A stretch of DNA of 64,000 nucleotides from a virus (lineage: Duplodnaviria > Caudoviricetes), in IMG/VR virus record IMGVR_UViG_3300010167_000010, positions 224,001-288,000 of that record. One strand, 5' to 3'. A program made the translations under genes and the position numbers. This document shows, in pieces, positions 2,085-61,777 of this stretch (position 1 is its first letter; every line of letters begins with the position of its first letter). The notes below the pieces were generated by a model that saw only the letters and a list, made by a program, of their open reading frames with translations, did not search any database and had not been told where the DNA came from.

Positions 2085-3284
2085 ATGTCAGATAAAAAAA
2101 TGGCTTACGTCGTTGAAATAAAAGACCTCGAACCAATAGAAGGAAAAGATAGAATTGTTTTAGCTTCATTTACGAATTCAGGTTGGAGAGTTATTGTTCA
2201 GAAGGACCAATTCCAAATTGGAGACAAAGCAATTTATGTTGAAACAGATTCTATTCTTCCAATGTGGGAAGAATTTCAATTTCTAGAAAAGCGATGTTAT
2301 AGTACAAAACGAAAAGGATATCGTATTCGAACTATGAAACTTGGAGATGTATATTCTGAAGGTATTTGTTTTGATTTAAAAGGTTTTTATGGTCCACCAG
2401 GTTCTAAAATAGGTGTTCCAATTGACGCACCTCTTGATAGGGACTTAACTGAAATATTAAAAATACGAAGAATTGAAGATGAAGTTCCTCAAGATCCACC
2501 ACCAACGAAATCTAAATTTCAAAACTTTGTAAATAAATGGCTTTATAGATTATTTAGATTTAAATTTAAGAGATACGGTTTTATTGCTCAAGATTTTCCA
2601 TCTTATTTAATTAAAACAGATGAAACACAAGCACAATCTATTCCACAATTATTTGAAAAAATGAAAGGAAGAGATGTTTATATAACTTTAAAAATGGATG
2701 GTCAGTCTGTAACTATGGCAAATTATAAAGGAGTATTTTCTATATCTACTCGTAACAGAATGATTTATCAAAATAAGATTAAAAAGGCAGCAAGAGTATT
2801 AATTCCTAAATCAGCAGATTATTTTAGACAACATAATGTTCATGCATATCTTGCAGCAAAATACAATATTCCTCTTATTTTAAGTAAATATGATAATGTA
2901 GCAATTCAAGGTGAATGTTGTGGTCCCGGAATACAGAAAAATAGAATTGGATTAAAAGATTACGAATATTATATTTTTAGTTTCTTTGATATTTCTAAAA
3001 GAGAATATTTTAGCGGCCAAAAAATGATGAATTTTTGTTTAGAGAATAAGTTAATTACAGTTCCATTTATTGAAATGAAAACTTTTAATTGGGATTCTAT
3101 AAAAGAATTAGAAGAATATGCTCAAAGAGATTATGCTAGTGGTACTCCAGCTGAAGGTATTGTAATTAGGGGTTATGAACATTATAATGAATATATGCCA
3201 CAACCCCATAATAAGATGCATGCAATGTGTTCACTTAAGATGATTAATCCAAAATTTAAATTAAAATATCAGCAGGACGAATAG
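2085..3284 (+). CDS. ATP-dependent RNA ligase (DRB0094/Rnl2-like, N-terminal tRNA-binding-like domain)
   Basis: N-terminal LEPIEGKDRI..WRVIVQKDQF..YVETDS; nucleotidyltransferase motif I KMDGQS, III IQGECCGPGIQKN, IV AEGIVIR, V SLKMINPKF. Confidence 0.9.
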   Translation: MSDKKMAYVVEIKDLEPIEGKDRIVLASFTNSGWRVIVQKDQFQIGDKAIYVETDSILPMWEEFQFLEKRCYSTKRKGYRIRTMKLGDVYSEGICFDLKGFYGPPGSKIGVPIDAPLDRDLTEILKIRRIEDEVPQDPPPTKSKFQNFVNKWLYRLFRFKFKRYGFIAQDFPSYLIKTDETQAQSIPQLFEKMKGRDVYITLKMDGQSVTMANYKGVFSISTRNRMIYQNKIKKAARVLIPKSADYFRQHNVHAYLAAKYNIPLILSKYDNVAIQGECCGPGIQKNRIGLKDYEYYIFSFFDISKREYFSGQKMMNFCLENKLITVPFIEMKTFNWDSIKELEEYAQRDYASGTPAEGIVIRGYEHYNEYMPQPHNKMHAMCSLKMINPKFKLKYQQDE

Positions 3285-3886
3285 TGGAATATAAATCTAA
3301 TAAAACTATTTATATTCAGAATCATCGTAAACCTAAAGCAGAAAGAAAAGAATTCGACTTTTACGCTACTCATCCAAAAAGTGTAATATCATTTTTGGAT
3401 GAGTTTTTAAAAGGTCATTCAATAAATACAGCTTGGGAACCTGCTTGTGGTAATGGGAATATATCAGAAGTTTTAAAAGAATACGGAATTAATGTTCATT
3501 CAACTGATTTAGTCAATAGAGGGTATGGACATGCATTTTTTGATTTTTTAGAACCGCAATTAGTATCACCCCAAGTTGATGCAATTATAACTAATCCTCC
3601 GTTTATATTAGCAGAACAATTTATTAAGAGAGCAATAGAATTAAAACCGAAACGATTTGTAATAATGTATTTAAAACTTACTTTTTTAGAGGGAAAGAAA
3701 AGATATAAATTATTTCAAAAATATCAACCATCAGAAATTTATGTTCATTCGTCTAGGCAAGGTTGTTCTCCTTTTGGGGAAACAGATTTTCAAAATGGTG
3801 GAAGTGTAGCTTATGCGTGGTATGTTTGGAGAACAGATAGAATGGGCCCAGCTCATCCTTATTTATTTTGGCTTCCTCCAAATTAA
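3284..3886 (+). CDS. DNA amino-methyltransferase (probably N6-adenine)
   Basis: DFYATHP, WEPACGNG (SAM binding), IITNPPF catalytic motif, YAWYVW. Confidence 0.88.
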   Translation: MEYKSNKTIYIQNHRKPKAERKEFDFYATHPKSVISFLDEFLKGHSINTAWEPACGNGNISEVLKEYGINVHSTDLVNRGYGHAFFDFLEPQLVSPQVDAIITNPPFILAEQFIKRAIELKPKRFVIMYLKLTFLEGKKRYKLFQKYQPSEIYVHSSRQGCSPFGETDFQNGGSVAYAWYVWRTDRMGPAHPYLFWLPPN

Positions 3887-4123
3887 ATGAAAAGTTATAA
3901 TGTTAAATTTTCTTTTAAAAATTATCCAATAGATAATTTAAAAGAACCGTATAATAATTTTAAAGGGTGTAATTTTACTAATATATGTATGAATTATAAA
4001 CTTCCGTTTGATGGATTAATAATAGAAGAATCTCTTCTTTGCGTTCATCAAGTTTATTTTTCTAATGATAAATGTGGATTATATTTAGAAAAACCAATTT
4101 TTAAGGAAGAATTATTTGATTAA
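3887..4123 (+). CDS. Hypothetical protein, ends ELFD
   Basis: 78-aa ORF abutting the previous stop codon. Confidence 0.6.
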   Translation: MKSYNVKFSFKNYPIDNLKEPYNNFKGCNFTNICMNYKLPFDGLIIEESLLCVHQVYFSNDKCGLYLEKPIFKEELFD

Positions 4124-4590
4124 AATTTAACGTTTTCACCTAAATAATTTATTTGATTTATGTTTTGAAATGATGCCATTTGATAATAATCTTCATCTAT
4201 TTTTATAATTAAACTTTTATCTTGAAGTTCTTCTGATAATTGAAATATACTTCTTTCACCTAATAAAAAAACGAAATCAAACCAATTTTTCCAAGCTTCT
4301 TTATAGGCATTAATTTCATCTTCTGTAAATGCTTCTTTTAATTTAGCCTTTTTAAAAAAATAATGAATCAAATTAAGATTTACGAAATTGTTATATTTAT
4401 TGATAATTAAATTAAAATCTAAAATGTCTAATCTTTTTTTAGATATTGGAGTCATATCTCCTGTCATTACTGTTTGTGCATCTTGTAATGAAAGACCTAA
4501 ATTTCCTAAAATTTCTAAAGGATCTATATCATTTAACTTTTTTCTTAAAATTTTTGGATCTATACTTTTAGCTATTTTATTAATGTCCAT
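4120..4590 (-). CDS. Hypothetical protein
   Basis: 156-aa ORF preceded by the CTAATTATT-ATG motif. Confidence 0.75.
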   Translation of the reverse strand: MDINKIAKSIDPKILRKKLNDIDPLEILGNLGLSLQDAQTVMTGDMTPISKKRLDILDFNLIINKYNNFVNLNLIHYFFKKAKLKEAFTEDEINAYKEAWKNWFDFVFLLGERSIFQLSEELQDKSLIIKIDEDYYQMASFQNINQINYLGENVKF

Positions 4591-58789: not shown

Positions 58790-59494
58790 CTAATAATTTT
58801 GTACTATAGAACTCATTGGTACCTGTAAATTACGAGGCATCATAGTATTTATTTTTCTTCTAAAATTGATAAACTCTTGGGGAATATCACACCATCTTAA
58901 TGGACATCTTTTCCAACCAACTGTTTCCCAATGTGTAGTTAAAATTTCTACTGTTCTATTATTTCTCGTTAAAATATCTACAACTAATTTTTCTAATGAA
59001 TCCATTGTTGCTGGAGTAAATAAGCCATCCCATGCTGAATGACATAATCCAATTCCAATAGCATGCCAATTATTAGTTCTATTTCTACAAACATCTTCAC
59101 CATATAATCTTCTAGCAAAATCTGTATAAATTTTTCCAGATTTTGGATCATTTTGAGAACTTCCTACATGCCAAGCTACTTCATTTTCTGGCACAACTCT
59201 CATAATTTCACCATCAATGCCAATTAAATATTGATAAGAACCAAAGGCTTGTGCTGATTCAAACCAGCGTCTGTTTGCAGTTGGTGTAGTACCAGGATTA
59301 GCTACCCAATGAATAGCTATAGCCCTTAATTCTCTCATTGCATCACCACGTCTGTTTTGACTACCTCGAGGTAGTAATTGTTCATTTATATTCAATTGTT
59401 TAATCTCCTCTTCTTTTTCTTCATATTCTTCTATTTCTGATTTTTCTTTTATTCCAAATAATATTCGGAATATTTTCATTAAAAAATCTATCAT
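58790..59494 (-). CDS. N-acetylmuramoyl-L-alanine amidase (Amidase_2 endolysin)
   Basis: IAIHWVANP, YLIGIDGEI..VPENEVAWHVG, IGIGLCH, THWETVGWKRCP. Confidence 0.88.
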   Translation of the reverse strand: MIDFLMKIFRILFGIKEKSEIEEYEEKEEEIKQLNINEQLLPRGSQNRRGDAMRELRAIAIHWVANPGTTPTANRRWFESAQAFGSYQYLIGIDGEIMRVVPENEVAWHVGSSQNDPKSGKIYTDFARRLYGEDVCRNRTNNWHAIGIGLCHSAWDGLFTPATMDSLEKLVVDILTRNNRTVEILTTHWETVGWKRCPLRWCDIPQEFINFRRKINTMMPRNLQVPMSSIVQNY

Positions 59495-59781
59495 GCAGTA
59501 ACGTGTCTATTATTATGTTTCTTAAATTCTTTTAAGAATTTTTTCATTAAACGAATAATAATATCTTCTCTATAATGTTCATTACTTTGTTTAAATACTT
59601 TATCAAACTTATCGTCGATATCTCTTCTTAATTCTTTTATTTCGTTAAAAGCTTTATCAATATTATCTTTATTTGATTGATTTATAATAGTCCATTTACT
59701 TGCATTCCAAAAACCAGTTCCTATTAAACCGGCTATCATTATTATAACAGTAACTAAAGATATAATTGTTGATGTGTCCAT
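59491..59781 (-). CDS. Holin-like single-TM protein
   Basis: N-terminal TM helix plus coiled coil, directly upstream of the amidase. Confidence 0.5.
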   Translation of the reverse strand: MDTSTIISLVTVIIMIAGLIGTGFWNASKWTIINQSNKDNIDKAFNEIKELRRDIDDKFDKVFKQSNEHYREDIIIRLMKKFLKEFKKHNNRHVTA

Positions 59782-59782
59782 T

Positions 59783-60349
59783 TTATTTGATTTTCTCCTT
59801 TTTCATCCACCAAAGCAAGAAATCATCAATTTGGCCATCTAATAATTTTGATTTACCAATAGTTGTAGTTCTATATACTCCGGCATCATCATTTCTTTTT
59901 CTATCTTCATTTTCTATTTCGGTTCTTTCTTTTCGTTTTTTAGTAATAATTCCTTCTCTCCAAGCTTCATAAGATGAAGGACCACCTTTTTCACCATCTA
60001 AAGTACCATCTTCTTTTAATGTCCCACCATTAGTCCATTTTTGTAATTGATAACGAACTAAATTGACATTACTATCTTCATTACATAAATCTTCTTTTAA
60101 TCTATTACTTGTAGCTGCCTTAAAAATTTCTTCATTTAAAACTTGTAAAGTTCCAATAAGCTCTTCACTTTCATCTAATTCTTCACCATAATTTAAATAA
60201 ACATTATTTTCTTCTATTTTATCTAAATCAGTTTTTTCTACTAATATTCTTTGATTTTCAGGTGTTGTAGCATTTAAAGAACTAGGTCCTCCATCAGAGG
60301 CTGTTACACATTCATAAATATTTTCAAAAATGTTATTCTTGTTCATCAT
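59783..60349 (-). CDS. Hypothetical, probable internal head protein
   Basis: Start likely ATG 60349 (MMNKNNIFENIYE) after AAGGA; LxE motifs. Confidence 0.6.
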   Translation of the reverse strand: MMNKNNIFENIYECVTASDGGPSSLNATTPENQRILVEKTDLDKIEENNVYLNYGEELDESEELIGTLQVLNEEIFKAATSNRLKEDLCNEDSNVNLVRYQLQKWTNGGTLKEDGTLDGEKGGPSSYEAWREGIITKKRKERTEIENEDRKRNDDAGVYRTTTIGKSKLLDGQIDDFLLWWMKKEKIK

Positions 60350-60695
60350 AATTTTCCTTTGGCTCTTGATTATACCCACCGATATATCCGCCCATTGTTG
60401 AGTTTATTATTTGAATAATTTCTTCTTGGGTTGCACCCCATCCTTTAGAGATCATTTCAATTGCTTCAGTTTTTGAGAAATCTTCATTTAAAACTAAAGA
60501 AACAAAATCTCCAGTTATTTCATCACACTCGAAATCTTTAAAAGAGATATCATCATCTTCATCGAAATCATAATCAGATGATTCTCTAATTTTATCGTTT
60601 AATCTATCATATTTATGAATAAATGATTCTTTTATTGGAATCTTCTTTTCATAAACAGACTCAAAAATTTCATTTAAAGTTTTGTTGTCTTTCAT
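60333..60695 (-). CDS. Hypothetical acidic protein, probable internal head protein
   Basis: TLNEIFESVYE, IKES, IRES; CTAAATAAT motif upstream. Confidence 0.65.
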   Translation of the reverse strand: MKDNKTLNEIFESVYEKKIPIKESFIHKYDRLNDKIRESSDYDFDEDDDISFKDFECDEITGDFVSLVLNEDFSKTEAIEMISKGWGATQEEIIQIINSTMGGYIGGYNQEPKENYDEQE

Positions 60696-60720
60696 ATTAT
60701 TTAGTATTTTATTTTACAAT

Positions 60721-60750
60721 AAATAAAAAGGCCCTGAAAATCAGGGCCTT
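60721..60750 (-). terminator. Rho-independent terminator closing the tail tube transcript
   Basis: AAGGCCCTGA/TCAGGGCCTT stem, 3-nt loop, T run on the - strand. Confidence 0.88.
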
Positions 60751-60754
60751 CAAG

Positions 60755-60850
60755 TTATTTCTTTTTCTTTGGTTTTTGCTTTTGTTGTTTTGGAGCAGCA
60801 GCAGGCTTATTCGTCTTCGCTGTCTTCTTCTTCGCCATCGTAATCGCCAT
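60755..60850 (-). CDS. Unannotated 31-aa Lys-rich peptide overlapping the acidic gene
   Basis: MAITMAKKKTAKTNKPAAAPKQQKQKPKKKK*; GAGGAGG 9 nt upstream; stop codon lies just before the terminator. Confidence 0.6.
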   Translation of the reverse strand: MAITMAKKKTAKTNKPAAAPKQQKQKPKKKK

Positions 60851-61016
60851 TTTCATCTTCCTCCTCTTCGTCATATTCTTCTTCATCGTAATCATCATAT
60901 TCATTACAAACTTCGTCGTATAAATCAGCTAAATCTACTTCAGCTTGTTCTCTACTACCGTCTTTTATAGTTTCAATGATCTCTTCAAGTCGTTCAATTA
61001 ATTCCTCATCTTTCAT
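60807..61016 (-). CDS. Small highly acidic protein (69 aa)
   Basis: AAGGAG SD; over half of the residues are D/E. Confidence 0.8.
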   Translation of the reverse strand: MKDEELIERLEEIIETIKDGSREQAEVDLADLYDEVCNEYDDYDEEEYDEEEEDENGDYDGEEEDSEDE

Positions 61017-61045
61017 ATTAAATATTCTCCTTTATAACTTAGTTA

Positions 61046-61777
61046 TTAGTCTAATCTTTGAGTCCATTCAGTTGGTGATTTCCAATCTGCGTTTTGACCT
61101 AGGTCTAAAGTATTTCCACCGAATTGAGGATAATCCATATCCATAAATTGGAAAGTAACTGTAAACTTATTAGGATCTGTTCCTTCAGTACTAAATGCAA
61201 TACCACCCATTTTTGATACCCAAACGTTATAAAAAGACCATAAAGCTAATGGATTCATTTTACTTCTTGTAGTTAAGTGACCATAAGTATCTTGAATATC
61301 TTCTGGACCAGCGTCAGCTTTTTTTCCTGTACCATTTGGGCTGTTAACTGTTGTTGCATAATATGCGCCGGCAATTGTTCCAACGTCTACTCTTCCAAAG
61401 AATTGTGTTGCATTAGATACACCACCAGTTACTGGATCTACTACTGCCATTAACCAAGCACTAAATCTACGTCTTAAGTCAAATGCAGCATCTTCTCTAA
61501 ATTCTATTTCAAATTGTCTATCTAATACTAAAGTAGCATTTGGTCTTTTAATTGTAATACCGTGATATTTTATTTCATATGTTCCAACTTCAACATCTGG
61601 AATATTAAAAGCTGTTGCTCTAACAGTTATTGGATATGATTGAAATGGGTTTTGATCTGGTTGTCCACTTGCAGATGGGAAGTAAATCTTAATATCATAC
61701 ATTTGGACTAAAAGGTCGGCACCTGAGTTTACTAAACCTCTAATAGGTGCAGTTGTTTTATTTGCATTATAAGCCAT
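61046..61777 (-). CDS. Tail tube protein (T4 gp19-like)
   Basis: ATAFNIPDVEVGTYEIKYHGITIKRP, FEIEFRED..LRRRFSAW, FYNVWVSKMGGI, FTVTFQF; AGGAG SD. Confidence 0.8.
   Translation of the reverse strand: MAYNANKTTAPIRGLVNSGADLLVQMYDIKIYFPSASGQPDQNPFQSYPITVRATAFNIPDVEVGTYEIKYHGITIKRPNATLVLDRQFEIEFREDAAFDLRRRFSAWLMAVVDPVTGGVSNATQFFGRVDVGTIAGAYYATTVNSPNGTGKKADAGPEDIQDTYGHLTTRSKMNPLALWSFYNVWVSKMGGIAFSTEGTDPNKFTVTFQFMDMDYPQFGGNTLDLGQNADWKSPTEWTQRLD

Follow-up and report, generated by a model that had tools for sequence, protein, structure and literature searches.

The 31-codon basic open reading frame (ORF) at 60850..60755 of the window, the 64,000-nucleotide stretch of viral DNA analysed here, is probably a real and separately translated gene for a polycationic peptide, with a probability of roughly 0.65, since two related lineages carry a free-standing, strongly conserved 29-codon version of it at the same place. 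The fuller account, in which the peptide would be translated in its own right from the ATG at 60850 by way of a GAGGAGG embedded in the upstream acidic gene, and the ORF would be a diverged counterpart of the 29-codon gene, is favoured a shade less firmly. The window comprises bases 224001-288000 of a virus record that is 329,018 bp long, carries direct terminal repeats and has 28.5% G+C, and the region is identical in other assemblies of the same phage (7 contigs), leaving no polymorphism to be read. The locus is laid out as follows:

61046..61777, minus strand: tail tube gene, 243 aa, first in the transcription unit (phrog_45 'tail tube', E 2.8e-15)
60807..61016, minus strand: acidic protein gene, 69 aa, 37 Asp/Glu, net charge ~ -33
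60860..60866, minus strand: GAGGAGG, candidate Shine-Dalgarno sequence of the basic ORF, formed by two GAG Glu codons, with the ATG 9 nt on
60755..60850, minus strand: basic ORF, 31 codons plus stop, in the +1 frame relative to the acidic gene, with its ATG at 60850
60807..60850, minus strand: dual-coding overlap, 44 nt, where the acidic gene has its final 14 sense codons and stop and the basic ORF its first 14 codons
60755..60806, minus strand: non-overlapping tail of the basic ORF, 52 nt, 17 codons plus stop (A 28, C 12, G 7, T 5)
60717..60751, minus strand: intrinsic terminator, 11-bp stem, 3-nt loop and T tract, starting 3 nt past the stop of the basic ORF
60333..60695, minus strand: next gene, 120 aa, syntenic in relatives, which shows that the basic ORF holds an equivalent position in the different lineages

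The T4 gp19-type tail tube identity of the gene that opens this unit is borne out by profile matches, with phrog_45 in the window joined by PF23849 (Phage_TTP_2) in the tail tube proteins of relatives and by PF06841 (T4 gp19) in one of them, and the acidic gene follows after a spacing of 29 nt. A sequence-only reading of this DNA had described a 69-aa protein with 37 acidic residues that holds GAGGAGG within its Glu codons, an ATG 9 nt downstream that opens another frame with 12 Lys and no acidic residues, and an extension of 52 nt beyond the acidic stop; all of these are present, with the gap between the basic ORF and the terminator stem being 3 nt and not the 4 nt given there. The product has a pI of ~11 and a net charge of ~ +11.5, and the 44-nt overlap holds a short direct repeat (ATGGCGA...ATGGCGA). 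The same reading took the ORF to be a hidden gene that standard gene callers would miss. The gene is supported, by free-standing counterparts under purifying selection, but it is not hidden, with the ENA and Logan assembly gene calls of the same phage listing a 31-aa product at exactly this position. A search of Rfam with 60300-61300 gave no match near gathering scores, and a possible promoter-like motif common to the region upstream of the tube gene and the region after the terminator was not enriched in the window.

Much of the appearance of the overlap is accounted for by chance. Read in the +1 frame, successive Asp/Glu codons (GAN-GAN) give only AAG, AGG, ATG or ACG (Lys, Arg, Met or Thr) and never a stop, so the frame over any poly-Asp/Glu tail is open and abundant in ATGs, the overlap itself proves nothing, and its 14 codons follow automatically from the Asp/Glu codons and carry no information. 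Every relative examined has an open, K/R/M/T-rich +1 frame over its acidic tail, closing 4-28 nt past the acidic stop. The openness of the basic frame past the acidic stop is equally unremarkable, because 26% of the long ORFs in the genome have a +1 frame that remains open for at least 17 codons past the stop, and a Shine-Dalgarno sequence and ATG arise easily by chance inside an acidic tail. Among the 134 GGAGG sites in the genome, 14 precede an ATG-opened ORF of at least 50 aa and most are not starts; GAGGAGG on its own is weak evidence for a start site. Relatives do build the Shine-Dalgarno sequence of the following gene from the GAG codons of the poly-Asp/Glu tail, at L001:4920-4940 and L002:4925-4947, where stop and start overlap as TAATG, and this is counted as support for the use of GAGGAGG at the basic ORF.

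The overlapping half of the window ORF is thus the same phenomenon as the basic alternative frames of GAN repeats in general. Unlike those frames, it extends for 17 codons past the end of the acidic gene, where the sequence matches that of a free-standing gene under selection elsewhere. It is also the sole ATG-started ORF of at least 25 aa with K+R of at least 35% and no Asp or Glu in the six frames of the 329-kb genome, and it occupies the slot where two related lineages have a selected gene of like length and charge. Within the overlap every Lys is encoded by AAG, as the GAA frame demands, and since a Lys codon AAG read one base earlier is a Glu codon GAA, the overlap is cheap in evolution. 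Lys-rich and Glu-rich genes can slide over each other almost free, AAG and GAA being the same letters one base apart, and this complementarity offers an easy way for overlapping genes to arise; it is equally a frequent cause of false 'hidden basic peptide' calls.

The case for a gene is carried by related loci, which a search with the tail tube protein recovered at 59-85% identity from assemblies, metagenomes and viral contigs. A free-standing 29-codon ORF lies at L001:5222-5311 (also in L011) and at L008:3458-3547 (also in L015 and L007), in phages whose tube proteins are 85% (L001, L011) and 67% (L008, L015, L007) identical to that of the window. The gene order there is the acidic gene, an 88-aa zinc-ribbon-like gene, the 29-codon ORF and then the counterpart of the 120-aa ORF, with AAGGAGG placed 6-8 nt ahead of the ATG and a product of 12 Lys, no Asp or Glu and a net charge of +11.5. 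Between L001 and L008, 12 of the 87 sense positions differ, 11 of the changes being synonymous and one non-synonymous, with the peptides identical at 28 of 29 residues (pS 0.70, pN 0.014, pN/pS ~0.02), and the other two frames of the same DNA show non-synonymous changes only. The adjacent 88-aa gene has pS 0.69, pN 0.33 and 56% identity in the same comparison, and the tube proteins are 64% identical. So low a pN at so high a pS, beside neighbours that have diverged this far, is the signature of a translated gene under strong purifying selection, and the 29-codon ORF is not a recent transfer. A strict degenerate DNA pattern of the L001/L008 peptide matched those two alone among the viral contigs, with zero matches in 185,579 prokaryote genomes.

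The gene between the acidic and peptide genes (L001:4938-5204, L008:3180-3446) belongs to a group of 88-101 aa that also follows the acidic gene at L002:4945-5250 and L023:1852-2142, and has a conserved N-terminal part and a CxxC...CxxC zinc-ribbon-like end, with a weak Pfam DZR match (E 0.027). No match to the 88-aa gene was found anywhere in the complete genome to which the window belongs.

The window ORF lies in the same slot of the operon as the 29-codon gene, directly upstream of the 120-aa-type gene in both the DNA alignment and the ORF maps, and it shares the anatomy of that gene, with ~30 codons (31 against 29), 12 Lys, no Asp or Glu, a like charge, a KQK-x-KKKK terminus followed by the stop, and a strong Shine-Dalgarno sequence (AGGAGG 6-9 nt before the ATG). 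The free-standing gene differs in having no overlap, in being separated from the acidic gene by the 88-aa gene, and in encoding a peptide that is 45% identical to that of the window. Measured against composition-preserving shuffles, the similarity gave p = 0.03 for the whole peptide and p = 0.27 for the 17 non-overlapping residues, so that the case for homology is made more by position, architecture and composition than by sequence. An HMM built from the three peptides, and hence partly from the window sequence itself, matched the window site alone in the 329-kb genome (E 3e-11). Between the window and L001 the peptide has a pN of 0.39, compared with 0.12-0.14 for neighbouring genes, at a synonymous divergence of pS 0.51-0.66. 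The selective regime in the window lineage appears to be a different one, with 45% identity there against 28/29 between two much more distant phages.

A rival reading is that no functional peptide is made in this phage, the 5' part of the ORF being the +1 reading of Asp/Glu codons and the 3' part the decaying end of an ancestral gene left after deletion of the 88-aa gene. This reading is consistent with the open and basic +1 frame over the acidic tail of every relative, the low identity to the conserved peptide and the p value of the tail alone, a peptide pN far above that of the neighbours, and the lack of the gene in most related lineages. Neutral decay of this kind was simulated from the L001 tail (d = 0.5-1.6, the genome's base composition, 10,000 runs), a procedure that presupposes an L001-like ancestral gene. 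An open frame persisted in ~25-30% of runs; at the observed synonymous divergence, no more than 2 of the 10,000 combined it with K+R of 45% or higher and a lack of acidic, hydrophobic and Cys residues. Given common descent, the polycationic character would therefore have been kept by selection, and the exact sequence not. Additionally, the retention of exactly 12 Lys, the charge, the near-identical length, the terminal motif and the stop position, together with AGGAGG 9 nt before the ATG, argues against a remnant. We consider a by-product or remnant unlikely, if still worth weighing, and the further alternatives improbable even when taken together.

Across the related phages, the peptide gene is absent at the equivalent position in L002/L012, L003/L013/L014/L029, L022, L023, L026 and L027, and is also absent from lineages with a different operon (L024, L025, L028, L030 and L031). 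A six-frame HMM search of the whole 261-kb L002 record (estimated 79% complete) gave no peptide match. Conservation of the basic frame in related phages, which had been proposed as a check, is thus mixed, with a free-standing version in two lineages and no gene in ~10. From this absence the peptide gene is taken to be accessory or dispensable and the acidic protein to work without it; the resolution of the tail tube tree is too low to place gain and loss events of the gene in order. Profile searching with the three peptides gave 0 matches among 1.84 billion representative proteins, an exact look-up in a 15-billion-protein collection did not find them, and none of the 594 pattern matches from a back-translated scan of viral contigs with the peptide alignment was confirmed. 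Nothing meaningful was found for the peptide in Pfam or PHROGs, with no Pfam match even at E <= 10, the best of the ESM Atlas features scored 0.77 and fell in unnamed clusters, and no phage peptide of such a kind was found described in the literature. The peptides are a new, tiny, lineage-restricted micro-protein family of three lineages.

The acidic protein is a real family in its own right, with its gene placed after the tail tube gene in at least 9 lineages, only 3 of which have the peptide gene. A nine-lineage alignment shows a conserved 40-residue N-terminal part followed by a variable poly-Asp/Glu tail, with the tail of the window protein among the longest. An AlphaFold2 model has helices at 3-18 and 22-40 (pLDDT > 88) and a low-confidence tail (41-69), and the N-terminal part is confidently predicted to be a helical hairpin. 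No Pfam or PHROG family was found for this protein, a PDB sequence search with the family returned designed helical proteins alone, and blastn against GenBank phages gave low-complexity acidic-repeat matches only. The proposal that the peptide is paired with an acidic chaperone fits poorly with this distribution, and in two of the three lineages with a peptide the 88-aa gene intervenes. Both the pairing and the overlap appear to be peculiar to the window genome and not a conserved design. A more elaborate proposal, which we regard as a long shot, is that the peptide and the poly-Asp/Glu tail of its helical-hairpin neighbour form a functional charge pair, in which the acidic protein would hold the peptide or deliver it to the prohead or the tail-tube lumen, the peptide would then serve as a counter-ion for DNA, and the overlap would link production of the peptide with translation of its acidic neighbour and also, by way of the stop lying 3 nt ahead of the hairpin, with read-through to the lysis genes.

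The overlap and its place also invite a reading as a programmed +1 frameshift, by which the acidic tail would be exchanged for a basic one. Tail assembly chaperones are made as frameshift pairs in phage lambda (G/GT) and P2 (E/E+E'), and the window locus recalls these in having a small acidic protein gene right after the tail tube gene and a second frame that overlaps it, here by 44 nt. Unlike those pairs, the shift needed would be +1 and not -1, no slippery heptamer or shift-prone codon beside a hungry or stop codon is seen in the overlap, the downstream frame has its own Shine-Dalgarno sequence and ATG, and no tape-measure gene follows, the next genes being unrelated. Furthermore, in L001 and L008 the peptide is encoded by a separate gene with its own Shine-Dalgarno sequence and ATG, one gene away from the acidic gene. 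A frameshift product, which the earlier reading had offered as its alternative, is barely credible on this evidence.

The peptide gene is usually the last before a terminator and is co-transcribed with the tail tube gene. In the window the hairpin at 60751..60727 is GC-rich, has z = -3.7 to -4.5 against shuffles and is also detected by a terminator scan, and the unit downstream of it holds the 120-aa, 188-aa, membrane protein and amidase endolysin genes. In L008, where the 29-codon gene is likewise the last before the terminator, a hairpin of other sequence follows, with a T-rich tail and downstream sequence as in the window; in L001 the peptide gene is present and the hairpin or terminator is absent. 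Transcription attenuators such as those of trp and his have leader peptides rich in one amino acid, and the window ORF resembles them in being short, dominated by one amino acid and placed beside an intrinsic terminator. It could therefore be suggested that the ORF acts in cis, with a ribosome at its stop covering the 5' arm of the hairpin and favouring read-through into the downstream genes, and slow translation favouring termination. The stop lies 3 nt (window) or ~7 nt (L008) before a strong hairpin, Lys codons make up 7 of the last 11, and an endolysin is encoded in the downstream unit, all of which would suit this role. However, the ORF stands at the end of an operon, folding reveals no alternative antiterminator hairpin, L001 keeps the peptide gene with no terminator, and L001 and L008 conserve the peptide across its whole length, beyond the Lys codons, which points to a product acting in trans. 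A leader role is very unlikely on balance, and it is not mutually exclusive with a role for the peptide itself.

Two observations touch on this terminator and the unit that it precedes. A second copy of the hairpin and T-rich tail (60707-60749) lies outside the window at G000:C1:320854-320898 (82% over 43 nt), preceded by a 77-aa gene with an F-E-x-I-Y tag at its start. Downstream of the window terminator, a 96-aa protein with one N-terminal hydrophobic helix (59491-59781, minus strand) overlaps the start of an Amidase_2 endolysin gene (58790-59494, minus strand; PF01510, E 5e-19), and the two are likely to be a holin-endolysin pair.

Under the favoured reading of the basic ORF as a translated gene, initiation at the ATG at 60850 would use the GAGGAGG embedded in the acidic gene, and the 31-codon peptide would be made on its own, from a diverged counterpart of the 29-codon gene at the 3' end of the same late tail-tube operon. 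In the simplest history, the window lineage would have lost the 88-aa zinc-ribbon-like gene, and the start of the peptide gene would have been remodelled onto the end of the acidic gene, giving the present overlap. The product would be a 3.4-kDa polycation with 12 positive charges, no hydrophobic core and Ala, Pro, Gln, Asn and Thr spacers, presumably disordered. From the operon we infer that it is made late and in large amounts, alongside the tail tube protein, and electrostatic binding to a polyanion is the working model for its action. Given a real gene, nucleic acid is the leading, if tentative, choice for this putative partner, with an acidic protein surface or the poly-Asp/Glu tail of the neighbour as alternatives.

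Small polycations that neutralise nucleic acid include the adenovirus core peptide mu, the protamines and the C-terminal tail of histone H1. The window peptide is similar to these in being short, presumably disordered and ~40% basic with Ala, Pro and Gln spacers, and its late, high-level expression context, if correctly deduced from the operon, would suit a stoichiometric counter-ion. The histone H1/protamine-like character proposed for it from the DNA holds for composition alone, as the peptide has Lys only and no Arg, lacks S/TPKK or AKKA repeats, and has no sequence relationship to these proteins and no Pfam, PHROG or structure-sequence match. The terminase of tailed phages threads naked DNA through the portal, so a peptide bound to DNA would have to reach the head by some other way, and a capsid counter-ion would have to enter the prohead beforehand, e.g. 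in association with an acidic component of the core or scaffold. The near-perfect conservation of residues between L001 and L008 hints at a partner more specific than bulk DNA, whereas the conservation of composition only in the window would point the other way.

The peptide gene is a clean example, supported by comparative genomics, of a ~30-residue phage gene so short that it falls at the limit of annotation, from huge uncultured phages whose genes of this size are seldom examined. Should the peptide prove to be a packaged counter-ion of DNA or to bind nucleic acid, tailed phages would have an analogue of the core peptides found in eukaryotic viruses.

Approximately 9 proteins of this phage share an N-terminal tag consisting of Met, 0-8 residues and (L/I/N)-F-E-x-(I/V)-(Y/F), a feature that neither the acidic protein nor the basic peptide has. 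Within the window the tag occurs on the minus strand at 60695, 60349 and 58781 (the starts of the 120-aa, 188-aa and 329-aa proteins), with further sites in the genome at G000:C1 135163, 137370, 174233, 216475 and 320595, and it is also found in the relatives L024, L026, L027 and L012. The tag has the look of a common propeptide or targeting signal, in the manner of the capsid-targeting sequence of phage T4.

The 120-aa and 188/198-aa ORFs of the window (60333-60695 and 59783-60379, minus strand) are one fused ORF in L001 (5339-6454) and L008 (3610-4749), of 371 and 379 aa respectively, which carries an insert rich in Cys. Two ORFs are present in the window, L002, L003 and L023, the second always in the +1 frame of the first and overlapping it by 11-170 nt; this is either a normal gene pair that some lineages have fused or a site of conserved recoding. 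In L030, genes for response-regulator (PF00072), CheX (PF13690) and Hpt/HATPase_c proteins lie at 2103-4538, directly after the tail tube gene, and may hint at motile hosts, perhaps spirochaetes.
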